A stretch of 63,326 nt of DNA from a bacterium (GTDB taxonomy: Bacteria; Patescibacteriota; Minisyncoccia; Phycocordibacterales; JAGLPS01): positions 1 through 63,326 of the forward strand of contig JAUYHB010000022.1 of the NCBI GenBank assembly GCA_030690305.1, in the 5' to 3' direction. The notes under the pieces were generated by a model. The model was not told the DNA's origin, searched no databases, and worked only from the letters and a program-made list of their open reading frames with translations. The translations under genes were made by a program, and so were the position numbers. Below, piece by piece: positions 1,222 through 63,326 of the stretch. Position 1 is the stretch's first letter. Every line of letters begins with the position of its first letter.

Positions 1222-1385
1222 TTTTTTCAGAACACGCATATTCGTCTGCTGACGAATTGCTCTGCTCCTTACAGGAGCTGTCCACTCATTGGATCTTTTC
1301 TAAGAAAAGCTCTCAATGAGTCTTGCAAAAGCTCCACGTGTTCGCTTTCTCACGGCCCGTCGACCTGTGCAAGATTCTGAAAAAA
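1222..1385 (-). ncRNA. Structured intergenic element R1 in the ybeY-ftsA spacer, carrying a copy of repeat module M2 (core 1264-1326)
   Basis: An 11-bp closing stem pairs TTTTTTCAGAA (1222-1232) with TTCTGAAAAAA (1375-1385). Inside, on the minus strand, lies gcaagACTCATTGagag-[hairpin]-atcCAATGAGTggacag-[GCTCC tgtaa GGAGC]. The same architecture occurs at 13000-13061 with different but still complementary hairpin stems. Confidence 0.45.
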
Positions 1386-10201: not shown

Positions 10202-11493
10202 GCAAATTCCAACTTCTTATAATGTTCGTATTCGGGGCGTTTATCGTGCTCGGTGTCATTATCTTTTCTGCCTCGCGTGGCACATCGACAAAGCCTGAAA
10301 ATAAAGTGACGATTTGGGGGACATTGCCGCTTAGTGATTTCAATACGATGCTCAAGGAACACCCTGTGAGCGAAAATAAAGAATTCGCCATCACGTATGT
10401 CCAAAAGCGCTCTACCGAATTTGACCAGGCATTTATTGAAGCGCTTGCGGAAGGCAAAGGCCCCGACCTTGTCTTCTTGCCGCATGATTCCTTGTGGAAA
10501 CATCAAGGGAAACTGTTTCCCATTCCCTATAAGAGTTATTCCGAGCGCCTTTTCAAAGACACGTTTATAGAAGAGGGGGAGTTATACCTTTCTTCCAGTG
10601 GAATCATGGGATTGCCGATTCTTGTTGACCCATTGATGATGTATTGGAATCGCGACGTATTTTCAAATGCGGGCATTAGCCGACCGCCGGAATATTGGGA
10701 TGAAATGTTTACCCTCGCTCAGACGCTTACCAAAAAAGACGAGTCGTTCAATATCACCGAAAGTGCCGTAGCGCTTGGAGAATTCAGAAACATAGCCAAT
10801 GCCAAAGAAATCATAAGCGCGCTTATTACTCAGGCGGGAGGTCCGATTACACAGCGGACGGACAAAGGGGCGACAGTGGTATTAAATCAAAAACTTGACC
10901 AAACGATTGTTCCCGCGGAAGCGGCTATTAACTTCTATACCGAATTTTCAAACCCCATAAAATTGTTTTATTCCTGGAATCGTTCACTCCCGCGTTCGGA
11001 CAATTTCTTTACGGCGGGTGACCTTGGCATTTACTTTGGTTTTGCCAGTGAGTTGGACCAAATAAAAGCAAAGAATCCAAATATTAATTTTGACGTCGCT
11101 TTGTTCCCGCAATCGCGCGAAGGACAAAATAAAACAACATATGGCCGCGTGCAGGCGCTTTCCGTCGTGAAAAGCAGCCGTAACATCGCCGCGGCAGTTT
11201 CCATCGCGGCTATTCTTACCGACAAAGAACACAGCGCCGCATTGAGTACTATTGCGGGATTGCCCCCTGTACGCCGCGACCTGCTTTCAAAAGCTCCATC
11301 CGGCGACGCGTACAGCATTCTGTTTTATCAAAGCGCCCTCCGCGCCCGAGGCTGGCTCGACCCCGATAGCGTGGCGACAACGGCGATTTTCCAGAGCATG
11401 ATAGAATCAATTACGGCGGGGCGTTTGCGAACGAGTCAGGCGGTTTCCCGCGCCCATTCGGAAATGCAGGATTTATTTAACCAAACAAAATGA
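10198..11493 (+). CDS. Membrane-anchored extracellular solute-binding protein (ABC SBP family 1-like)
   Basis: 431 aa. N-terminal TM anchor, SBP-like length and composition (GKGPDLVFLPHD, YWNRDVF). No permease or ATPase gene is adjacent. Confidence 0.6.
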   Translation: MSKFQLLIMFVFGAFIVLGVIIFSASRGTSTKPENKVTIWGTLPLSDFNTMLKEHPVSENKEFAITYVQKRSTEFDQAFIEALAEGKGPDLVFLPHDSLWKHQGKLFPIPYKSYSERLFKDTFIEEGELYLSSSGIMGLPILVDPLMMYWNRDVFSNAGISRPPEYWDEMFTLAQTLTKKDESFNITESAVALGEFRNIANAKEIISALITQAGGPITQRTDKGATVVLNQKLDQTIVPAEAAINFYTEFSNPIKLFYSWNRSLPRSDNFFTAGDLGIYFGFASELDQIKAKNPNINFDVALFPQSREGQNKTTYGRVQALSVVKSSRNIAAAVSIAAILTDKEHSAALSTIAGLPPVRRDLLSKAPSGDAYSILFYQSALRARGWLDPDSVATTAIFQSMIESITAGRLRTSQAVSRAHSEMQDLFNQTK

Positions 11494-11852
11494 AACGCAC
11501 TCTTTTGGTAGTTGTTTTTTTTGCACTTCTCCCGATTCTGGTTTTTGCCCAAGGGGGCCTTATTCCTTGCGATGGGGTAGACACCAAATGTGGTTTTCCG
11601 CAACTCATTGAACTGGGTAATAACATCATTAACTTCCTGGTTATTGCTTCGATTCCGCTTGCTGTTATCAGTTTTATTTATGCCGGCTTTCTTTATCTTA
11701 CTGCGGGAGGTAACGAGGGGAAAATCAAACAGGCACACAGTATTTTCTGGAAAGTTTTGTGGGGCTTCATTATCATTCTCACCGCTTGGCTTATCGTTCA
11801 ACTTATTATTAACGCTTTCTTGGTGCCGGGTTATTCACTTCTTGAAAATTAA
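11490..11852 (+). CDS. T4SS-pilin-like (TrbC/VirB2-type) small membrane protein, paralog 1 of 6
   Basis: Signal peptide (ALLPILVFAQGG) plus two TM helices. The ATG overlaps the SBP stop (ATGA). Confidence 0.65.
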   Translation: MKRTLLVVVFFALLPILVFAQGGLIPCDGVDTKCGFPQLIELGNNIINFLVIASIPLAVISFIYAGFLYLTAGGNEGKIKQAHSIFWKVLWGFIIILTAWLIVQLIINAFLVPGYSLLEN

Positions 11853-11853
11853 T

Positions 11854-12213
11854 ATGAAACGATTTTTATTGTCTTTTTCTTTTCTGTCACTTCTTCCGTA
11901 TGTCGTACTTGCCCAAAGCGGCGGGGGAGGCGGAGGCACGATGCTTGAAAATCCTTTCAAAGGGGGAGCCGATTCGTTGGGTGATTTTGTTCAAATACTT
12001 GCAAACGACGTTGTAATGCCCCTCGGCGCGGTTGTTGTGGTGCTGTATATGATTTATTCCGGCTTTCTTTTTGTTGTGGCTCAAGGCAATCCTGCCAAAC
12101 TTGAGGAAGCAAAACGGGCTTTTCTGTATTCATGCATTGGTGCGATAGTTCTTCTTGGCGCGTGGACAATTGCCCAGGTTATTCAAAATACCATTGACCA
12201 AATCACTCAATAA
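11854..12213 (+). CDS. T4SS-pilin-like small membrane protein, paralog 2
   Basis: Internal ATG at 11854 of track ORF 11590..12213, 1 nt after the previous stop. MKRFLLSFSFLSLLPYVVLAQSGGGGGG signal peptide followed by two TM helices. Confidence 0.65.
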   Translation: MKRFLLSFSFLSLLPYVVLAQSGGGGGGTMLENPFKGGADSLGDFVQILANDVVMPLGAVVVVLYMIYSGFLFVVAQGNPAKLEEAKRAFLYSCIGAIVLLGAWTIAQVIQNTIDQITQ

Positions 12214-12215
12214 AT

Positions 12216-12560
12216 ATGACTCGATTATTTTTCTTACTTCTCGCTCTTATATCGCCCGTTTCTTCTTTTGGGCAATCTCCACTCGGTCCGGATAATTTCG
12301 ACGATGTGGTAAGTCTCCTTATCGGTATTATGGGTCTTTTATATCCGGCTCTTGTTGCATTGGCGCTTCTTGTTTTTTTCTGGGGCTTAGCGAAGTTTAT
12401 GTCCGGGGGCGGAAACGAGCAGTCGGTTGAGGACGGAAAGAAACTTATGCTCTGGGGCATCATCGGGTTGTTTGTATTGGTTTCCATGTGGGGAATCGTA
12501 CGCATTTTGGTTGACAGTTTCGGTTTTGACGGAGGATTTCCCCTTGCGCCTGAGTTTTAA
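12216..12560 (+). CDS. T4SS-pilin-like small membrane protein, paralog 3
   Basis: Signal peptide and the conserved core FFWGLAKFMSGGGNEQSVEDGKKLMLWGIIGLFVLVSMWGIV. Confidence 0.65.
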   Translation: MTRLFFLLLALISPVSSFGQSPLGPDNFDDVVSLLIGIMGLLYPALVALALLVFFWGLAKFMSGGGNEQSVEDGKKLMLWGIIGLFVLVSMWGIVRILVDSFGFDGGFPLAPEF

Positions 12561-12571
12561 CACATTCACTT

Positions 12572-12901
12572 ATGAAACATTTCAATATCACTTTGCCAAT
12601 AGCATTTTTCTCTCTTTTTCTGTTTCCTGTGGGAGCGTACGCCATAGACAACCTGCAGGACCTCATCTACCTTTCAGTCGGTCTCTTCAATAATATTATT
12701 TATGTCATATTCTCTTTTGCCCTTCTCATGTTTTTCTGGGGTTTGGCGAAATTTATTGCAAGCGCGGGGAACGATAAATCTATTGCCGACGGGAAACGCC
12801 TGATGTTGTGGGGCGTTATAGCTCTTTTTGTCATGGCTTCAGTGTGGGGTATTGTTGCCTTTCTTCAGGACAGCTTTGATATTACGGATCCCTACTTTTA
12901 A
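12572..12901 (+). CDS. T4SS-pilin-like small membrane protein, paralog 4
   Basis: Core FFWGLAKFIASAGNDKSIADGKRLMLWGVIALFVMASVWGIV. Confidence 0.65.
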   Translation: MKHFNITLPIAFFSLFLFPVGAYAIDNLQDLIYLSVGLFNNIIYVIFSFALLMFFWGLAKFIASAGNDKSIADGKRLMLWGVIALFVMASVWGIVAFLQDSFDITDPYF

Positions 12902-13312
12902 CTTTTATTACGACAAGCGAGGAGCGCGTGGACAATTCCGATTGTACACAGCGTCCGAGTCGAAGTCGTAACAAAGGTGAGAAGATCTGGGAAATCTTCG
13001 CAAGACTCATTGAGAGTCCGCCGTAGGCGGAATCCAATGAGTGGACAGAACCTGTAAGGTTTAATACCCCGCCCCTCTGGGGTGGGAGAGAGCGAGTCTT
13101 CGAGCACCAAATGGGTGCAGGGCTTGCCCCGCGGTTAATACCCTTTATTGTAGTTGCAGATTCATCCCCGCGGCAAGCCGCGAGGGTATTCTCTGCAACT
13201 ACAAGAGAGAGGTCGGCGGAGCCGACACTTCTACAACAAAGTTTGCCCTGTTGCCTCGCCCAATACCCCGTCCGCTCCGCGGTGGGGACGGGATGAGGAC
13301 AAACTTTATTTT
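12902..13312 (+). repeat. Composite structured repeat locus A: modules M1 (12928-12977), M2 (12978-13059), M3 (13060-13149), M4 hairpin (13150-13202), M5 (13203-13312)
   Basis: M1+M3 recur at 63186-63326 (reverse strand) without M2. The M2 core recurs at 1264-1326 (reverse strand). M4+M5 recur at 42947-43123 with M4 inverted. The locus is rich in GC hairpins and in a repeated AATACCCC motif. No conserved reading frame is present. Confidence 0.8.
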
Positions 13313-13456
13313 AAGCCGCAATAATCGTCTTAACCTTGACGTCGGCTGTCAACATATTTTCTTGTTTTTCCACATGGGTGCGATACAATGTATGTATCAA
13401 CTTTTTTATAAAAGTAAGGTCGTTATTTAGTTTATCCTTAATAACGTTTTCTAAAA

Positions 13457-13801
13457 ATGAAGAAAGCACTCGCCTTAACAGCGACAATCGCAGCTCCGGC
13501 ATTGGCATTCGCACAGTTGGGTAATGTCGAGGACATCATAAGCGCCATCGGCAGTATCGTTACCCTTCTTATTCCGATTGCCTTTTCTGCCGCTCTTCTC
13601 TTCTTCTTCTGGGGTTTGGCTCAGTACATTCTCTCAGCAGGAAATGAGGAAGCAAAAGCACAAGGTAGAAATATGATGATCTGGGGTATTGTCGCTCTCT
13701 TCGTTATGGCATCGGTCTGGGGTCTTGTCGCCTTTATAGGTGACGCTCTAGGAATCGACCAAAGCGGAGACATAGACGTTCCTGGAGTTCTTAACAACTA
13801 A
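13457..13801 (+). CDS. T4SS-pilin-like small membrane protein, paralog 5
   Basis: Signal peptide ALAFAQ and core FFFWGLAQYILSAGNEEAKAQGRNMMIWGIVALFVMASVWGLV. Confidence 0.65.
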   Translation: MKKALALTATIAAPALAFAQLGNVEDIISAIGSIVTLLIPIAFSAALLFFFWGLAQYILSAGNEEAKAQGRNMMIWGIVALFVMASVWGLVAFIGDALGIDQSGDIDVPGVLNN

Positions 13802-13824
13802 TACGTCGCTTACTTTTAGACTGT

Positions 13825-14082
13825 ATGTCCATTGGAGAGTTTCTCAATAAGGTAAGCGAAGCAATCGTTAACCCTCTGATACGTCTGATGTTTGCGGCCG
13901 CAACAATCGTGTTCGCGTGGGGCATCGTTCAGTTCATAAGCAGTGCACAGAGCGATGAAAAACGCGAAGAAGGAAAAAGAACGATGTTGTGGGGCATCAT
14001 TGGAATGTTTATCATGATATCGGTATACGGTATCGTCGCAGCCCTTCTCGGAACATTCGGAATCGATAGCGACTACTTCTAA
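13825..14082 (+). CDS. T4SS-pilin-like small membrane protein, paralog 6 (no obvious signal peptide)
   Basis: Core FAWGIVQFISSAQSDEKREEGKRTMLWGIIGMFIMISVYGIV. Confidence 0.6.
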   Translation: MSIGEFLNKVSEAIVNPLIRLMFAAATIVFAWGIVQFISSAQSDEKREEGKRTMLWGIIGMFIMISVYGIVAALLGTFGIDSDYF

Positions 14083-42946: not shown

Positions 42947-43123
42947 GTGATTGCGGAGAATACCCCGACGGCTTGCCGCGGGGATGAATCCGCAAGTAGA
43001 AAATGTATCGGCGGAGCCGACACATCTACAACAAAGTCTACCCCGATGCCTCGCCTAATACCCCGCCGAGGTACTCCGAGGGAACAGTTTACTGCGGGGA
43101 TAAGACGAGGCTAAACTTTATCT
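42947..43123 (+). repeat. Structured repeat locus B: M4 hairpin in inverted orientation (42947-42999) plus M5 (43008-43123)
   Basis: The M4 interior GAATACCCCGACGGCTTGCCGCGGGGATGAA is the reverse complement of the locus A interior, with 3 differences. M5 shares TCGGCGGAGCCGACAC.TCTACAACAAAGT...GCCTCGCC.AATACCCCG...AAACTTTAT with 13213-13310. Confidence 0.8.
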
Positions 43124-43125
43124 CA

Positions 43126-44208
43126 ATGAATCAAGGATTTTGGAAAAAACTAAAAAAGCCGATAATGGTGCTCGCACCTATGGCCGATGTTACGGACGCG
43201 GCGTTTCGCCGCATCATTGCCAAATACGGCAAACCCCCCGTAATGTGGACGGAATTTGTTTCTGCTGACGGGTTGTTTTTGGGCGGGAAAGACGCGCTTC
43301 TCCAAGACCTCGCATTTACCAAAGCGGAAAAACCCATTGTCGCGCAATTTTTTACCGCCAAACCCGACATGATGAAGAAAGCGGCGCAGCTTGCAGTCAA
43401 ACTCGGTTTTGACGGTATTGATATTAATATGGGATGCCCGGACAGAAGCATTGAAAAGCAAGGCGCGGGCGCGGCTCTTATGAAAACTCCCGCGCTCGCG
43501 CGGGAGGTTCTTCGTGCCGCAATAGAGGGGGCAGGGAAATTACCTGTGTCCGTCAAAACCCGCATCGGCTATAAAATAAACGAACTTGAAACTTGGCTTC
43601 CGGAACTGCTTGCAGAATCTCCCGCCATGATAACTATCCATGCCCGCACACGGAAAGAAATGTCCGACGTGCCCGCGCATTGGGATTCGGTTAAGCGCGC
43701 TGTTGAAATCCGCGATAGTCTAAAAAGCGAAACGCTTATTTTCGGAAACGGGGACGTTCTTGATATTGCCGATGCCAAGGAAAAGGCAAAAGAGGCGGGA
43801 GCGGACGGAGTAATGCTCGGACGCGCTATTTTTGGAAATCCGTGGCTCTTCGCACCTTTGCATAAAGGTGCGAAGAGCCCTGAGCCCCTCGGTGCTGAGT
43901 CTCAGGACGAAGCGCAAAGTCGAAGGGCAGGTGAATCCCTCGATAAGACTCGGGACGAAATCGGCGCTTTATACAAACCGTCGATTTCGGAAAAACTGAC
44001 GGTGATGGTGGAGCACACCAAACTGTTTGAAAAATTGTTCAAAGGCAAAAAGAATTTCGCCATAATGAAAAAACACTATAAAGCCTATGCTCACGGCTTT
44101 GAGGGAGCAAAGGAGCTACGTATGCGGCTTATGGAAGCGAAGGACGCGAAAGAAGTGGAAAAAGTCACAAAACACTACCTTAAAACTGGGGCAATGCTTT
44201 CTATATAA
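43126..44208 (+). CDS. dus: tRNA-dihydrouridine synthase
   Basis: MVLAPMADVTDAAFRR, GFDGIDINMGCP and TIHARTR. Start set at ATG 43126, because the track extension from 43003 reads through repeat module M5. Confidence 0.85.
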   Translation: MNQGFWKKLKKPIMVLAPMADVTDAAFRRIIAKYGKPPVMWTEFVSADGLFLGGKDALLQDLAFTKAEKPIVAQFFTAKPDMMKKAAQLAVKLGFDGIDINMGCPDRSIEKQGAGAALMKTPALAREVLRAAIEGAGKLPVSVKTRIGYKINELETWLPELLAESPAMITIHARTRKEMSDVPAHWDSVKRAVEIRDSLKSETLIFGNGDVLDIADAKEKAKEAGADGVMLGRAIFGNPWLFAPLHKGAKSPEPLGAESQDEAQSRRAGESLDKTRDEIGALYKPSISEKLTVMVEHTKLFEKLFKGKKNFAIMKKHYKAYAHGFEGAKELRMRLMEAKDAKEVEKVTKHYLKTGAMLSI

Positions 44209-45135: not shown

Positions 45136-46173
45136 ATGTCGCATACCGTTTTATACCGCAAATATAGGCCGCAAAAGTTTCCTGACGTCATTGGACAGGA
45201 CCATATTGTCAAAGTGCTGGAAGGCTCGGCTAGAGAGGGGAATATCTCCCACGCATATCTTTTTTCGGGTTCGCGCGGCACGGGCAAAACATCCGTGGCC
45301 CGTATTTTTGCGGATGCGATTGGATGCAAAGGAAATGATTTATATGAAATAGATGCCGCGTCAAACCGCGGAATCGACGATATCCGCCAAATCCGCGAAT
45401 CGGTTCTCGGAATGCCATTTGAATCGAAATTTAAAGTCTATATAGTCGACGAAGTCCACATGCTCACCAAAGAAGCCTTCAATGCGCTTCTGAAAACTTT
45501 GGAAGAGCCGCCGGCATACGTTGTTTTTATTCTCGCCACGACGGAAATGGATAAGTTGCCGGAAACTGTCGTATCCAGATGCCAGACATTTCAATTCAAA
45601 AAGCCCAATCAGCAAATTCTCAAGAAAATGATTTTGGATGTGGCAAAAGGGGAGAAGTTTGCCCTTGAACCGTCTTCCGCGGACTTGATTGCAATGCTTG
45701 GCGACGGCTCATTCCGCGACGCGCTCGGAATTTTGGAAAAAGTCATCGTCTCGTCTTCGGACAAAAAAATATCCGTCAAAGAAGTGGAATTGGTGACGGG
45801 CGCCCCGAAAACTGCTCTTATCAATGATTTCATAACGAGTATTGTTGAAAAGGATATGAAGAAGGGGCTGACAGCCGTGCGGGAAGGGGCGGAAAATAAC
45901 ATTGACCCGAAAGTATTTTTAAAACTCGTGCTCCGTTCCGTGCGCTATGTACTGCTTCTGCGCTATGCTCCCGAAATGGAGCAAGATATTGCAGGAGAAG
46001 TATCCGACGAGACGTTTGAGTTCCTAAAAAAGCTCTCGGGGAATAAAGATGCCAACATATCGGGAGAGACTTTGCGTACCCTTTTGACGGCGTATTCCGA
46101 AGCGGGGAAGACAGCGATTCCCGAATTACCACTTGAGCTTGCGTTAGTCAAAATAATCGGGCAAGCTGGATAA
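45136..46173 (+). CDS. dnaX: DNA polymerase III subunit gamma/tau (short form)
   Basis: HAYLFSGSRGTGKTS, YIVDEVHML and SRCQTFQF. Confidence 0.9.
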   Translation: MSHTVLYRKYRPQKFPDVIGQDHIVKVLEGSAREGNISHAYLFSGSRGTGKTSVARIFADAIGCKGNDLYEIDAASNRGIDDIRQIRESVLGMPFESKFKVYIVDEVHMLTKEAFNALLKTLEEPPAYVVFILATTEMDKLPETVVSRCQTFQFKKPNQQILKKMILDVAKGEKFALEPSSADLIAMLGDGSFRDALGILEKVIVSSSDKKISVKEVELVTGAPKTALINDFITSIVEKDMKKGLTAVREGAENNIDPKVFLKLVLRSVRYVLLLRYAPEMEQDIAGEVSDETFEFLKKLSGNKDANISGETLRTLLTAYSEAGKTAIPELPLELALVKIIGQAG

Positions 46174-46176
46174 TAT

Positions 46177-46247
46177 TGCCGGATCGTCTAATGGTAGGAC
46201 ATGGGCCTTTGAAGCCTAGTATCTTGGTTCGAATCCAAGTCCGGCAG
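46177..46247 (+). tRNA. tRNA-Gln (anticodon UUG)
   Basis: TGCCGGA...TGGGC-CTTTGAA-GCCTA...TTGGT-TCGAATC-CAAGT-CCGGCA-G. Confidence 0.8.
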
Positions 46248-46321
46248 TCAATAAGATTTTTTTCCAGTAAAAACTCGATAATAATCATTAAAAAAAAGGT
46301 ATCAAATGCTACCCTGTTTTG

Positions 46322-46330
46322 TGCTATAGT
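46322..46330 (+). promoter_or_regulatory. Extended -10 box TGCTATAGT upstream of the AIPR gene
   Basis: Same box type as other promoters in the window. Confidence 0.4.
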
Positions 46331-46346
46331 TTTGGTGCATTTGCGA

Positions 46347-46362
46347 TTCCAAGTACGGCAGT
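46347..46362 (+). repeat. Partial duplicate of the tRNA-Gln 3' end
   Basis: TTCCAAGTACGGCAGT versus ATCCAAGTCCGGCAGT (46233-46248): 14 of 16 identical. Confidence 0.7.
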
Positions 46363-46363
46363 T

Positions 46364-46380
46364 CCGAAAACTGATAAACA
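46364..46380 (+). repeat. Left copy of the island-border motif CCGAAA..T.AT.AACA
   Basis: CCGAAAACTGATAAACA versus CCGAAAGTTATCAACA at 50245-50260. Same orientation, 13 of 17 aligned positions match. Confidence 0.45.
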
Positions 46381-46387
46381 GTGAATT

Positions 46388-48082
46388 ATGACATCAATAT
46401 TAGAAAATTTTATAAAAGCAATCAGTGATAAATACAAAATTTCGTTAAACGAAGCTTTTGAAATTTTGTCCATGTTCTCCATATTAGGCCGTCCTTTGGA
46501 TGAGATATATAAGGAATATTGGGTGGCAGGTACGAATGACGGCGGTATCGATGGTATTTACATAGATGAAGATACGGGGAATGTACATATCTTTCAATCA
46601 AAAAATTCAAAACAACTTAAACAAAAAGATATTCAAAAATTTAAAAGCGACTACAAAAATTTTTTCGAATCTGGAAACACATCTAATATTGAAATTAACG
46701 AAAAAATTCAGGCTTTTATTGATGAGATAAAAGATTTTGGTGAGAAAGGGAGAATCCTAAAACCTATTCTTTATTTCTGTTACTCAGGAGAAAATACTGA
46801 TCCCCCAAATGCAAAAATATTTAAAAAATTCGCTAAGCTAGTGGGTAATCCTCCTTTTTTTATTAAGGATTCAGTATTACTTATAGAAAATTTAAAATCT
46901 TTGCAGGGAATACAAAGATCTTCAATAGTTGAGTTTTCCTTCCACCCAGTCTCAAGTGAAATATACCCTGGGGAACAAGCAATTTTCTCGTTCTACACTC
47001 AACAAATTAAAGCCGCAAATTTCCGAATAAGTGCTATTGAACTCTGTAAGTTAATTGATGAAGAAAAAAGTAAAAATGGTACCATAGACACGTTATTCTC
47101 TGAAAATATCAGAGGTTATCTAAAGGTAAATAAGACCAACAAAAAAATACTTGAAACACTTCTTGATTCATCTAAAAGAAGTTTCTTCCCTTTTTTGAAT
47201 AATGGTCTTACTTTTATTTGTGAAAATATGCAAATTCCAGCTCAACCGCAGGTAAACATTTTTCTTCTAAGTGTGAAAAATCCATTAATTGTTAATGGGC
47301 AACAAACTGCTCGCATGATTTACAAAATTTACACAGAGAAAGGGGAGAAAACACTTGATAAAGTTTATCTAACAGTTCGGGCTTATGAAACTAAGGAGAA
47401 TCGTCTCATAGACATGATTACTGAAGCGACAAATACTCAAACCACAATCAACTTTCGTGATCAAATGAGTAACAAGCACTTTAATCATTGGGCTCGTATA
47501 ATGTTTGCCTCTAAAAAAGTAACCTATATAGCAAAACGCGGAGAGATACTTAACCCTAATCCTTTGGAGGGGGAATTGTCTGAATCAGTAGCAAATGACA
47601 CTGTTCTTAAGTTTTGGTATGCGACCTATCATGAAGATCCTCACACTGCAAAAACTTCAAAATCTCGTGTTCTAGAATCAATTTTTCTTGCGACAAAAGA
47701 AGAAAACCCCTCTTTAGCAAAGCTATTTTCTGGAAATCCAAATTCTCCTGTCTACTCCCAGCTTTATAATGCGTATCAAATTTACAAGTTAGTATTAGAG
47801 AAAAGGAAAATCATTGAAAGTAAAAAACAAACTGACTTGGAATACATATTTCATGCTGATGAATTAATCTGCTACGGAATATATAAAAAATTACAAAAAA
47901 AGAAAAAATTAAAAAATCTTTCAAGTATAAATATTGAATCTTTATACGAAGAAGTTCGGTCAATAATTAATGAAGTTGTTAAAGAAGAAAAAGTTAACCT
48001 CGGGGAGGTATATGCACATTCAAAATATTTTAAAAGTGAAGGAATACTTGAGGATTATAAGTTAAAAGCAGGAATAAAATAA
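46388..48082 (+). CDS. AIPR-family abortive-infection protein with an N-terminal Mrr-like nuclease motif
   Basis: 564 aa and very AT-rich. GTNDGGIDGIYIDEDTGNVHIFQSKNSK (D...QxK nuclease-like), followed by NNGLTFICEN and IVNGQQTARMIYK, typical of AIPR proteins. Confidence 0.7.
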   Translation: MTSILENFIKAISDKYKISLNEAFEILSMFSILGRPLDEIYKEYWVAGTNDGGIDGIYIDEDTGNVHIFQSKNSKQLKQKDIQKFKSDYKNFFESGNTSNIEINEKIQAFIDEIKDFGEKGRILKPILYFCYSGENTDPPNAKIFKKFAKLVGNPPFFIKDSVLLIENLKSLQGIQRSSIVEFSFHPVSSEIYPGEQAIFSFYTQQIKAANFRISAIELCKLIDEEKSKNGTIDTLFSENIRGYLKVNKTNKKILETLLDSSKRSFFPFLNNGLTFICENMQIPAQPQVNIFLLSVKNPLIVNGQQTARMIYKIYTEKGEKTLDKVYLTVRAYETKENRLIDMITEATNTQTTINFRDQMSNKHFNHWARIMFASKKVTYIAKRGEILNPNPLEGELSESVANDTVLKFWYATYHEDPHTAKTSKSRVLESIFLATKEENPSLAKLFSGNPNSPVYSQLYNAYQIYKLVLEKRKIIESKKQTDLEYIFHADELICYGIYKKLQKKKKLKNLSSINIESLYEEVRSIINEVVKEEKVNLGEVYAHSKYFKSEGILEDYKLKAGIK

Positions 48083-48123
48083 AGAACCTTCTGTATTTTT
48101 TAAAAATTTTTATATAAACCTAC

Positions 48124-48753
48124 ATGATACCGAAAAAGAAAATTAATCTAAGTGGAGAGAGTATTTTTAAAGACCTAGCAAAAGAATTAATACCGCATAG
48201 AGAGAAACCTATTGGGTCCATGCTTTTCATTGTAGAAGGTACTCAATTAGAGCCTCGTGTAGGAATACGTTATCCTGGTAGAAAACTCAGGCGAAGAACT
48301 GAAATAAAAAGAGCTAATAAAAGTACCGTTCTTTGGGCTAATCTCCTAGATTTTGAAGTTATTCCCTTTGAAAATGGGCAACCAGGAACATCAATACAAT
48401 TCACATATACAAATTTACTTAAAGACTTCGAGGATTATAAAAAGAAAGACAATGAATTTTGGGATATGATTTTGGAACTTCATAGACGCAATCAAATTAC
48501 TAAAATTCCCCCAAATCTTGGAGGAATTGAACCAAAGTTGTTTTTAGAGATGCTTAAGTGGATGTGGATACAGGAAGATGTTAACTATAAACTATCGCAT
48601 AGCGATGTAGGGTCCCCATTAAAGTATAGACTAGAAACTAGAAGCCAAAAGCCAACAGGGAAAGGCGCAGGAAGAGACAAATTTTTTGCAGCGCTAATTT
48701 TAGTCAAAGAAGGTCATTTTTCTGCTGGAGAAATCAAAAAAATTATACCTTAA
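48124..48753 (+). CDS. Hypothetical protein (209 aa), island-specific
   Basis: No motif I can name. Weak D/E...E-x-K-like patch WIQEDVNYK. The 3' end overlaps the convergent LexA-MTase gene by 11 nt. Confidence 0.55.
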   Translation: MIPKKKINLSGESIFKDLAKELIPHREKPIGSMLFIVEGTQLEPRVGIRYPGRKLRRRTEIKRANKSTVLWANLLDFEVIPFENGQPGTSIQFTYTNLLKDFEDYKKKDNEFWDMILELHRRNQITKIPPNLGGIEPKLFLEMLKWMWIQEDVNYKLSHSDVGSPLKYRLETRSQKPTGKGAGRDKFFAALILVKEGHFSAGEIKKIIP

Positions 48754-50209
48754 AAAAGTCATACGATTGTCTTTTTCCCATTACTAACTTATGCTCAGGG
48801 GCAATCTCTCCATTTGTTAGTCTTTTGTTTATAATATCGCAATATTTTTTATCAATTTCTGCAGATATAAACTGACGATTTAAATTTCTACACACATCTA
48901 TTTCTGCACCACTACCTCCGAAGAGCGTAAAAACTACGTCTTTTGGTTTTGTTGATGCTTTAATCAACATCCCTGTTAGTTTTTGAGGAATTTGGCAGGC
49001 ATGATATGTTTTTTCCTTGCTTACATTTTTAACAAGGTTGAATTCAAACCAAGAGTAGGGCATCCTACCTTTTGAACCATTTGCTAGATTTTGTTGAATC
49101 CTTTTGTCTGTTGGATTTTTGTATGGTAGTGCAACCCCATCTTTAAAAAATTTATTATTAACATTTTTTCTTACATGTAAAATACTTCTATGGGCTGTAG
49201 TAAATCTCTTAGGCGTATGTCCAACATTTGTGTTGTAAACCCAAACATATTCATGGATATTTGGGAAATATGAATCTAGATATTTAACACGAAGATGTGC
49301 ATTCTGCTGTGGATAATTCATCATAAAAAGATTACCGTCTTCTTTAAGCACACGCATTGATTCCTTGGCAAGTTCTATATACCAGTTTATGTAATCTTCG
49401 AATTTTTTTGTGTAATTATTTTTACCGTATTTAATTCCAACGTTGTAATCAGGATCTCCAAAAATCATATCCACGCTGTTATCTGGTAGATCTTTCAAAA
49501 CATGCATTACATCACCGTTGTAAACTCTGTTTAAATAATCGGACATCTTATCTTTTCGTTGAACATTTTTCTTTACAGGCAAAATAAAAGTTTGAGACGT
49601 TTTCTTTATTTCATTTGTTTTTACTACATCAAGTAAAATACCTTGTACAGTTAACTGCTGGTCATTTTTAATTATTATTGGCTGATAATTTTTGTTTGCT
49701 GGTTGTAATCTAATCTGCCCCTTTTCTTTGTAGAAAGTTTTAAGTGTTGCTTCATTTCCATTAAGCAGTGCAACTACCTTGTCTCCATTTTCAGCAACAT
49801 TTTGTTTTTTTATCAGAATCGTATCTCCGTTATTTATTCCTTCATCAATCATACTGTCACCTTGTACTCGGAGGGCATATAATTCACCTGATTTTGAGAT
49901 TTTATTTTTTGGTATTGCAATATTTTCTTTTTCTTCTTCAAAAATATGTATAGGTTCTCCAGCTGATATTGTCCCAAGAAGGGGAATGCTAACCATTGCT
50001 TGCGAAGACGTAATTTCAACCCCACGAATTTTATTCTTCTCTTTTTTAAGATATCCACCCTCTCTTAATTCTTCAAGGTGTTGGTGAATAGTTGATACAG
50101 CCAGGTTAAGGTGCTTAGCAATTTCTTTAATTGAAGGTGAAAATCCTTTTTGTTGATTATAAAAATCTAAAAAATCTAAAAGTTGTTTTTTACGAGGAGT
50201 AAGTCCCAT
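48743..50209 (-). CDS. Fusion protein: full-length LexA repressor (wHTH + S24 autopeptidase) joined to a beta-class N6-adenine/N4-cytosine DNA methyltransferase
   Basis: LexA part: LTPRKKQLLDFL...SIKEIAKHL (wHTH), cleavage site ISAGEPI, catalytic GDSM, and Lys in EATLKTFY. MTase part: motif IV FGDPDYNVG upstream, motif I TLFGGSGAE near the C-terminus (beta order). ATG 50209 preferred; the track start at 50218 is TTG. Confidence 0.8.
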   Translation of the reverse strand: MGLTPRKKQLLDFLDFYNQQKGFSPSIKEIAKHLNLAVSTIHQHLEELREGGYLKKEKNKIRGVEITSSQAMVSIPLLGTISAGEPIHIFEEEKENIAIPKNKISKSGELYALRVQGDSMIDEGINNGDTILIKKQNVAENGDKVVALLNGNEATLKTFYKEKGQIRLQPANKNYQPIIIKNDQQLTVQGILLDVVKTNEIKKTSQTFILPVKKNVQRKDKMSDYLNRVYNGDVMHVLKDLPDNSVDMIFGDPDYNVGIKYGKNNYTKKFEDYINWYIELAKESMRVLKEDGNLFMMNYPQQNAHLRVKYLDSYFPNIHEYVWVYNTNVGHTPKRFTTAHRSILHVRKNVNNKFFKDGVALPYKNPTDKRIQQNLANGSKGRMPYSWFEFNLVKNVSKEKTYHACQIPQKLTGMLIKASTKPKDVVFTLFGGSGAEIDVCRNLNRQFISAEIDKKYCDIINKRLTNGEIAPEHKLVMGKRQSYDFFKV

Positions 50210-50217
50210 GTAATACA

Positions 50218-50260
50218 ATTATATCTAAATAGACCGAAAATAAACCGAAAGTTATCAACA
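50218..50260 (-). promoter_or_regulatory. LexA-MTase promoter region with tandem direct repeats
   Basis: Minus strand reads TGTTGATAAC-TTTCGGTTTAT-TTTCGGTCTAT-ttaga-TATAAT, then 8 nt, then ATG. The 11-mer TTTCGGT(T/C)TAT is repeated in tandem across the -35/spacer. Confidence 0.45.
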
Positions 50261-50363
50261 TTCAGTCATTTTGCACTAAAATAAAGTCCCACAAAATCCT
50301 CCCCTTGCTTTTTAGGACATAAAAGTGCACACTTATCAATAGCTATACTAATTAACACTATAT

Positions 50364-63174: not shown

Positions 63175-63185
63175 AATTGTTTTGG

Positions 63186-63326
63186 AATAAAGGGTATTAA
63201 CCGCAGGGCAAGCCCTGCACCCATTTGGTGCTCGAAGACTCGCTCTCTCCCGCCCCAGAGGGGCGGGGTATTAAATCCTTTGTTACGACTTCGACTCGGA
63301 CGCTGTGTACAATCGGAATTGTCCAC
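63186..63326 (-). repeat. Structured repeat locus C: M1 + M3 without M2, truncated by the window end
   Basis: Its reverse complement matches 12928-12977 and then 13060-13149 almost base for base. A single A replaces the 82-nt M2 block. Confidence 0.85.

Follow-up and report, generated by a model that had tools for sequence, protein, structure and literature searches.

A hairpin-dense spacer in a Patescibacteria pilin-like gene array: two tandem non-coding elements, probably IS200/IS605 derivatives, with a nested folded module

Why is an array of pilin-like genes in a Patescibacteria genome split by several hundred nucleotides of hairpin-dense DNA? We addressed this question in contig JAUYHB010000022.1 (assembly GCA_030690305.1), whose 63,326 nucleotides are referred to as the window. 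The array (11490-14082) consists of six PF18895 'T4SS_pilin' paralogues encoded in one direction, and the small genes 4 and 5 flank the spacer, which is referred to as locus A. The initial annotation had described it as five modules (M1 to M5) with borders at 12902 and 13312. We confirmed that the spacer is structured and recurring. Its natural borders are 12910 and 13310, and the five modules resolve into two tandem non-coding elements, 12910-13149 and 13150-13310, with M2 as an insert nested in the first. As to their class, the two elements are probably gene-less derivatives of the IS200/IS605 family, akin to palindrome-associated transposable elements (PATE-like) and related to REP. The features of locus A and of the other loci in the window are as follows.

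12902-12909, plus strand: left flank CTTTTATT, with the putative TTATT target/cleavage motif as read from the sequence
12910-13149, plus strand: element 1, non-coding, with an M1-type left end; begins ACGACAAGCGAGGAGCGCG, ends GGTTAATACCCTTTATT and contains the nested M2
12910-12977, plus strand: M1, left-end module of element 1; 100% identical to 63277-63326 (minus strand)
12978-13061, plus strand: M2, nested three-helix junction; covariance-model match of 88.7 bits, E = 1.8e-24
13056-13149, plus strand: M3, right part of element 1; 97% identical to 63186-63280 (minus strand)
13150-13310, plus strand: element 2, non-coding (M4 and M5); directly adjoins the TTTATT that terminates element 1; right end ...GGACAAACTTTATT
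13150-13202, minus strand: M4, left-end hairpin unit of element 2; 11-bp outer stem GTAGTTGCAGA/TCTGCAACTAC
13213-13227, plus strand: small central hairpin TCGGC-gga-GCCGA of element 2; exact in locus C at 43008-43023
13234-13310, plus strand: M5, right end of element 2; long stem CAAAGTTTG.CC / GG.CAAACTTT, terminal TTTATT at 13305-13310
1258-1365, minus strand: locus B, solitary M2 copy between ybeY and an ftsA-like gene, on the same strand as both; covariance-model match of 90 bits, E = 7.5e-25
42947-43122, plus strand: locus C, copy of element 2 with both hairpins direct; follows GTTATT and ends AAACTTTATC
63186-63326, minus strand: locus D, copy of element 1 without M2; convergent with a ZIP transporter gene and truncated by the window end

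A BLASTN self-search reproduced all claimed recurrences of the modules in the window, with 78-100% identity. Specifically, locus A positions 12928-12977 match 63326-63277 (100%, the alignment being truncated by the window end), 13056-13149 match 63280-63186 (97%), 12997-13059 match 1329-1267 (78%), 13213-13270 match 43008-43065 (90%), and 13148-13204 match 43001-42945 (84%). The copies previously placed at 63186-63326 and 1264-1326 do recur, but both are on the minus strand. The copy of M4 and M5 placed at 42947-43123 recurs as well, but in a different arrangement: in locus A, M4 has the opposite orientation to M5 and to its locus C counterpart, being flipped within its own 11-bp inverted arms. 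The hairpins named in the initial annotation are present in the region. The motif AATACCCC, said to occur three times there, has exactly two plus-strand instances, at 13063 and 13262; two further instances read AATACCCT, one at 13137 on the plus strand and the other on the minus strand within M4. The predicted fold of the region has an energy of -179 kcal/mol versus -134 ± 6.5 kcal/mol for shuffles (z = -6.9, plus strand), and the minus strand has a z of -7.7 versus shuffled sequence. Overlapping open reading frames (ORFs) are all short, 51-70 amino acids (aa). Other sequences of this species, one from an NCBI assembly and two Logan contigs, break at module borders, namely at 12929, 13068, and 13219 of the window. 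Such breaks are the usual mark of multi-copy repeats and support this status for the modules. We also ran the Rfam check suggested earlier, and no family matched the region. At gathering thresholds, Rfam 15 detected only tRNAs in the whole window, and a relaxed scan (E <= 10) of 12880-13460 returned three chance-level matches, none of them credible.

Element 1 begins directly after CTTTTATT, the flank that abuts the stop codon (12899-12901) of pilin-like gene 4, and terminates with CCCTTTATT. Its M1 follows the consensus (N)CGAC..AGCGAG..GAGCG-hairpin-CCGAG.CGAAG and has left-end homologues in groundwater metagenome contigs. M3 contains AATA-CCCCGCCCC-tct-GGGGTGGG, a GC-rich stem with GCACC-aaatg-GGTGC, and a GGG-CUUG-CCC hairpin, and ends with TTAATACCCTTTATT. 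At locus D, M1 and M3 are contiguous on the minus strand; M2 constitutes an additional 78-84 nt in locus A, and the final 6 nt (13056-13061) of its third hairpin (hp3) overlap the start of M3. An M1-type left end is combined with a canonical right end in L104/L106/L110, L045/L048/L051/L065, and L120 (L numbers designate loci retrieved from other DNA). Further relatives of this left end are found in composites of the JAGLOS01 and CAYPRS01 metagenome-assembled genomes (MAGs), and the M3-type right end is also present in L120 and the JAGLOS01-MAG composites. Within M1 (12941-12979), TTGTACACAgCGtCCG and GAAGTCGTAACAAaGGT are similar to the two basal strands of 16S helix 44, but the helix itself is missing. 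M1 as a 16S rRNA 3'-end fragment was considered and rejected, and its striking matches to TTGTACACA.CG.CCG and GAAGTCGTAACAA are probably due to chance. The former falls in a stretch conserved among the M1 relatives, the latter is the complement of the locus A copy's own 5' end and is missing from relatives, and the relaxed Rfam scan gave no SSU match.

Element 2 has the terminal sequence AAACTTTATT, a second copy at 42947-43122 with 84-90% identity, and an architecture that recurs in L053/L064/L118, L060/L116, and L107/L111. The interior of M4, read on the minus strand, is GAATA-CCC(T)CGCGG-CUUG-CCGCGGGG-ATGAA within the outer stem, and the stem of M5 encloses AATA-CCCCGTCC..GGGGACGGG-ATGAGG. 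When the window was scanned for AATA, a hairpin, and TTTAT[TC] in succession, only the M5 site and 43057-43122 were found, and in both of them the end motif begins 17 nt after the hairpin foot. Locus C is placed between a terminator-like hairpin and the start codon of dus (43126), its end lying three bases before that codon. A mechanically called ORF (43003-44208) begins within this repeat element; dus itself most likely starts with the ATG at 43126.

We then inspected the hairpin common to these ends. A metagenome scan with the M4 core pattern AATACCCCGNCGGCTTGCCRCGGG yielded 88 loci, many of them at contig ends. The shared hairpin, AATA-CCCCG.CGG-CUUG-CCG.CGGGG, is found as the exact 24-nt pattern AATACCCCGACGGCTTGCCGCGGG in locus C (24 of 24 positions), and the M4 core of locus A, which is inverted, agrees with this IS200 right-end hairpin pattern at 21 of the 24. 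All retrieved DNA was screened for Y1 transposases by phmmer and tblastn, with an IS200 TnpA sequence as the query. The screen matched one ORF (L112 1551-1982), a 143-aa Y1_Tnp protein (PF01797, Pfam E = 1.8e-35) whose stop codon overlaps AATA-CCCCGTCGGCTTGCCGCGGGG-TTC-TTTATT. Five more contigs open with the final 28-29 residues of TnpA, followed by the same hairpin, TTTTATT, and unrelated flanks, which indicates a multi-copy insertion sequence. TnpA homologues number in the thousands, and complete IS200 copies, including those of Legionella, have a CCCCG(C/T)GG-CUUG-CC(G/A)CGG(GG) hairpin at both ends. In IS608, TnpA binds subterminal hairpins, and the left cleavage site is 19 nt 5' of its hairpin and the right one 10 nt 3' of the other; both sites are recognized through pairing with four bases 5' of the hairpin foot, the end hairpin has an extrahelical T, and insertion is 3' of a target tetranucleotide (PMC3201880). 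Our hairpin has a single bulged base, and in all copies its AATA is complementary to TATT by Watson-Crick pairing. The earlier suggestion to look for a Y1 transposase was thus borne out in that the module hairpin is the end hairpin of IS200-group insertion sequences encoding Y1_Tnp, but not in the sense of a gene within the 63-kb window.

The initial annotation had likened the spacer to REP/BIME elements, which is right in kind, as the hairpins are of the IS200/Y1 type. Classical REP/BIME would depend on a REP-associated tyrosine transposase (RAYT) that has been domesticated, and would not be derivatives of a mobile IS200. They share with locus A a mosaic built of hairpins, M4 acts as a single invertible hairpin unit with a GTAG start in locus A, and one TnpA homologue (P0009) is labelled 'REP-associated tyrosine transposase' by its source. 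However, GTAG, which had been taken as a clue, is seen in M4 of locus A only, with GTGA in its place in locus C and CAAC, GGAG, or TTCA in the relatives; it is AATA that is conserved as a tag. With lengths of 110-240 nt and distinct left and right ends, the units also differ from 20-40-nt palindrome pairs in alternating orientation, and the associated proteins are IS200-group TnpA of 142-143 aa in multi-copy insertion sequences. We therefore consider classical REP/BIME very unlikely. The two elements are better classified as IS200/IS605-derived and PATE-like, because the units of 160-240 nt have defined ends with TTATT/TTTATT and the hairpins of their relatives are direct.

The ends of the elements reveal a common insertion rule. 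TTATT directly precedes related elements in at least 25 independent insertions. Elements 1 and 2, locus C, the JAGLOS01 and CAYPRS01 composites, and about 20 metagenome elements begin directly after TTATT and end with TT(T)ATT. The ends of the composites are fixed, with AGCGACGTAGAGCGAGCG directly following (T)TTATT on the left and GGGGTTTAATACCTGTTATT on the right, and in between are zero, one, or two M2 copies and an M4-like hairpin. The metagenome units have a common plan, in which the left part is TTATT, 7-15 nt, and AATA-hairpin-ATGAA, and the right part is AATA-hairpin, a linker, and TTTATT. The two AATA-hairpins of these relatives are in direct orientation. TTAT[TC] is located at most 45 nt 3' of the hairpin in 51 of 77 distinct copies, versus 10 of 77 in a control window, and its end is mostly 10-11 or 25-29 nt past the 24-nt hairpin pattern. 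At L039, the reading frame of a nucleotidyltransferase gene remnant becomes continuous again when the element and one TTATT are excised, and one TTATT pre-existed the insertion. The rejoined ORF is a remnant of just 68 aa, not an intact gene split by the element, which favors insertion over splicing. A group I/II intron or IStron was likewise rejected, because the ends have neither omega-G nor GUGYG...AY, the size of the units is insufficient, and the copies are mostly intergenic.

The TTATT flanking each element on both sides could also be produced by DDE-type miniature inverted-repeat transposable elements that duplicate a 5-bp TTATT, and the 14-19-nt direct repeats of tRNA 3' ends that flank M2-bearing inserts at L019 and L036 would fit remnants of tRNA-targeting integrative elements. 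Yet the ends of both elements lack terminal inverted repeats, since ACGACAAGCG.../...ACCCTTTATT and GTAGTTGCAG.../...AACTTTATT are not mutual reverse complements, and the end hairpin matches Y1-transposase insertion sequences. No integrase or DDE transposase recurs near the copies, and the window loci A-D are not adjacent to tRNA genes. Clustering of ORFs from 39 M2 loci (see below) and the 88 hairpin loci yielded only housekeeping genes or shared gene order as recurrent neighbors. An origin of this sort is extremely unlikely in our judgment.

Based on the IS200-type ends, we propose that a Y1 (HUH) transposase encoded elsewhere mobilizes each unit in the form of single-stranded DNA. This transposase would bind the GC-rich hairpins, which have a CUUG loop and one bulged base, and the AATA just 5' of the hairpin foot would serve as a 'guide' by pairing with TATT in the cleavage/target site. 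The element would insert 3' of TTATT and bring its own TTTATT at the right end. Since each right end would regenerate TTATT, it could provide a target for another element to insert immediately behind it, which would give the head-to-tail pair of locus A. Trans-mobilization in this genome is suggested mainly by the 97-100% identity of the locus A and D copies.

Several observations weigh against this proposal. The 63-kb window contains no Y1 transposase gene according to tblastn with TnpA, and Pfam found neither transposase nor integrase in ten ORFs near the loci and in a low-GC island of the window. The tnpA-bearing copies appear to be from outside Patescibacteria, as judged by eye from an E. 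coli-like LysRS in L072 and a FabF-like neighbor in L112; the genes beside two NCBI-sourced copies gave no clue to their taxonomic origin. AATA is invariant in all copies, and a 5-bp TTATT target duplication by another type of enzyme would give an identical sequence picture. The left end of element 1 (M1) is unlike the IS200 left end, and its right end is AATACC directly before TTTATT instead of AATA-hairpin-linker-TTTATT. Lastly, the inverted left hairpin (M4) may have rendered the locus A copy of element 2 immobile or dead.

What, then, is the module nested in element 1? In locus A, M2 is composed of (G)GUGAG, hp1, CGCAAG, ACUCAUUG, AGAG, hp2, AUC, CAAUGAGU, GGACAG, and hp3, and its consensus is (G)GUGAG, hp1, CGCAAGAC, P2, AGAG, hp2, AUC, P2', GUG(G/U)ACAG, and hp3 (NNNCU-GUA-AGNNN), often with an outer closing helix. 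We scanned one genome per species with the pattern ACTCATTGAGAG-N8-30-ATCCAATGAGTGG and obtained 39 loci, most of them titled as Patescibacteria lineages (Kaiser-, Taylor-, Paceibacterota, Parcubacteria, and 'Saccharibacteria'-labelled), with at least five pattern matches in one MAG. Viral contigs gave no match to the pattern, and a phage origin of M2 was rejected on this ground. A covariance model (R1) built from the pattern loci detected 53 copies in those loci, the window, and one metagenome locus; only two copies are within the window, and locus B differs from the M2 of locus A by compensatory changes in hp2 and hp3.

Covariation was measured on 51 distinct M2 sequences in an alignment fitted to the model. 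The fraction of paired cells is 96.8%, compared with 78.4% in shuffled alignments and at most 51.7% with the partner slid. Double-sided changes occur in 23 of 26 pairs (11.9 shuffled; at most 10 with the partner slid), and the covariation score is 0.485 (0.136 shuffled; at most 0.121 with the partner slid). None of 500 shuffles reached the observed values, and in some diverged copies the long helix itself covaries. The fold of M2 is real, in the form of either RNA or single-stranded DNA. An early impression from few copies that wobble pairs assign its strand failed on counting. As G-U (18 cells) is no commoner than A-C (17 cells), the wobble count fixes neither the strand of M2 nor RNA versus single-stranded DNA. 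Searches of the M2-bearing loci against Rfam, relaxed filters included, returned nothing over M2. Hence, of the earlier idea of an uncharacterized structured RNA family, the part that stands applies to M2 only, for its covariation without an Rfam match, but there is no G-U wobble excess.

An alternative is that the composite as a whole, or M2 if nothing else, functions as a structured non-coding RNA co-transcribed with its neighbors. It could be, for example, a small RNA released by processing, a ribozyme, or a scaffold that binds proteins, and the repeats would then be gene copies and not selfish DNA. The strong covariation speaks for it, and so do the junction strands, which are invariant across many lineages. 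M2 also lies in 16S-tRNA(Ile) spacers, within a partial copy of the tRNA(Ile) 5' half, and within 300 nt of a tRNA gene at about 11 of 40 loci, mostly on the same strand. Between co-directional genes, 21 copies are sense and 6 antisense by a hand tally in which the copies are not all independent. On the other hand, M2 occurs in every kind of intergenic context with six copies antisense to both neighbors, it is present or absent at otherwise identical sites, and it shows neither a G-U excess nor an Rfam match. Moreover, the non-M2 modules have transposon-end features and no conserved RNA cores, and M2 is contained in just 2 of 80 searched metagenome hairpin loci. The RNA explanation is accordingly judged unlikely. 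A TnpB/IscB guide RNA was also rejected, as no recurrent nuclease-like ORF cluster is found near M2 or the hairpins and M2 is not fixed relative to the right end.

The low co-occurrence indicates that the hairpin and M2 are independent modules; in the scan, none of the M2-bearing MAG loci has a canonical AATA-hairpin-TTATT right end. The four otherwise identical sites are locus A (with M2) versus locus D (without), L084 versus L049/L052, L014 versus L025, and the pseudo-tRNA(Ile) of L005 versus intact tRNA(Ile). At all four, the 5' border of M2 is sharp (...GG or AG, then TGAG). The 3' junction shows differences of 1-3 nt at three of them, and in L084 it falls in a G run and is unplaceable. 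In genomes sharing the gene order of the window, M2 is found at differing intergenic positions, e.g., just after gyrA in L006 and between genes that overlap at window 6637-6680 in L042. With more doubt than for the class of the two elements, we suggest that M2 could be an undescribed, Patescibacteria-wide functional nucleic-acid element, either a structured RNA or a new miniature mobile element folding as single-stranded DNA. The former might be an abundant RNA made from rRNA/tRNA operons and highly expressed genes, possibly a new ribozyme or a protein- or tRNA-binding RNA; the latter would nest in IS200-type elements and tRNA genes.

The surroundings of M2 have several other features. L005:2950-3190 and L011:240-525 contain a spacer with a partial duplicate of the tRNA(Ile) 5' half, in which M2 is situated between the D arm and the anticodon stem, and the duplicate of L005 extends to the anticodon loop. 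In L019:7380-7740 and L036:5560-5999, M2 inserts are located downstream of tRNA genes and are followed by the afore-mentioned 14-19-nt direct repeat, and the M2 insert of L007:7300-7760 is preceded by an inverted copy of the tRNA 3' end. These tRNA-adjacent inserts resemble att-site duplication by site-specific integration and are only about 200-330 nt long. Palindromes of the form ATTCCCGC-N-GCGGGAAT adjoin M2 in Patescibacteria MAGs (L004:5380-5470, L013:6790-6830, L016:1850-2060, and L034:700-800). They are another repeat family within these mosaics and are similar to the Neisseria dRS3 consensus, ATTCCC-N8-GGGAAT. The sequence GAGC-(G/A)AA-GCGAA recurs at the hairpin tips of several unrelated modules, both hp2 of M2 and loops of adjacent modules (e.g., L014:2100-2560, L025:3760-3900, and L028:4190-4230); it contains GCGAAGC, which gives a very stable DNA mini-hairpin.

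Returning to the pilin array, genes 1-4 are tightly packed (overlapping or at most 11 nt apart), and genes 5-6 follow after a spacer of 555 nt. Without the inserts, the spacer would be about 155 nt, which suggests that the array was already interrupted there before they arrived. The AT-rich 13311-13456 is probably the native upstream region of gene 5. The inserts may affect expression of the pilin genes; a consensus scan for a terminator or promoter role of the elements remained at background level, and such a role was rejected. In L007, M2 lies downstream of a related pilin array on the opposite strand.

In the NCBI contig JAXMJZ010000002.1 (GCA_034375565.1; L145:10733-10991), which was compared with window 12902-13149 and 63175-63326, an M2-containing copy of element 1 connects the locus D ZIP gene with the pilin-like gene 4 of locus A. 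The M3 of this copy is a hybrid with a D-type base near the right end and an A-type base in the hairpin, as expected from a crossover between two inverted element 1 copies 50 kb apart. The junction is either a real 50-kb inversion variant or an assembly chimera through the repeat. As these repeats fragment assemblies at module borders, they matter for the curation of small-genome MAGs.

Elsewhere in the window, the afore-mentioned low-GC island (46000-50300) has 32-36% GC versus about 46% in the remainder. The island, which is probably foreign and has a likely role in defence, adjoins tRNA-Gln (46176-46249). It encodes an AIPR protein of the abortive-infection type (46388-48082) and, on the minus strand, a fusion of a LexA/S24 peptidase with an N6/N4 DNA methylase (48743-50218). 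In L005:620-1520, a 16S rRNA gene is interrupted beside the decoding-site sequence by an insertion of about 900 nt that encodes a LAGLIDADG-like ORF, as judged by eye.

Taken as IS200/IS605 derivatives, the two elements belong to a known kind of ordinary selfish DNA, here in a phylum that has been little studied; literature searches on Patescibacteria repeats or RNA motifs returned nothing describing them. Hairpin-dense spacers of Patescibacteria could be annotated as IS200/IS605-type miniature elements by three markers, the AATA-hairpin, the TTATT ends, and the CUUG loop. The elements imply that these reduced, host-dependent bacteria carry, or recently have carried, single-strand transposition activity, and the end hairpin common to proteobacterial-looking contigs and Legionella IS200 hints at cross-phylum spread. 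M2 is the novel residue and the part worth following. It offers specialists in RNA and transposons a clean, covariation-supported motif, with the covariance model R1 ready for wider searches.

How do the elements compare with known systems? BOX of Streptococcus pneumoniae, NIMEs of Neisseria, and the Rickettsia palindromic elements likewise have variable internal modules between fixed end modules, high predicted structure, and occasional insertions into genes or RNA genes, but their sequences and presumed mobilizing enzymes differ from those of the window elements. REP/BIME with RAYT (PMC2817692, PMC3333891, PMC3479197, PMC8266576) are also intergenic hairpin mosaics related to IS200 ends, served by Y1 enzymes and marked by a conserved tetranucleotide beside the hairpin foot; the window elements differ in having AATA instead of GTAG/CGTC, larger units with distinct ends, and direct rather than alternating orientation. 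PATEs are gene-less IS200/IS605 derivatives described in Haloquadratum (PMC3119063) and Geobacillus stearothermophilus (PMC10055086). Like them, our elements are short, non-coding, multi-copy units that keep IS200/IS605-type ends and are presumed to be trans-mobilized. Same-strand subterminal hairpins at both ends, by which PATEs are recognized, are found in locus C and many relatives, and locus A deviates. PATEs often carry a TnpB guide RNA, whereas no tnpB- or omega-RNA-like feature was seen in the window elements, which are tandem, nested mosaics carrying the unrelated M2. Compared with the IS200 group, the window elements are without tnpA, the left end of element 1 is unrelated, and locus A has the left hairpin of element 2 in flipped orientation; their motif is TTATT, in contrast to TTAC/TCAA of IS608. 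Aside from these differences, they resemble the IS200 group and IS608: the subterminal hairpins are GC-rich with a bulged base on one strand, terminal inverted repeats are absent, insertion is 3' of a specific short motif that has a counterpart at the right end, and the four bases 5' of the hairpin foot are complementary to the cleavage site. With the tnpA-bearing IS200 copies they also share the CUUG-loop hairpin.

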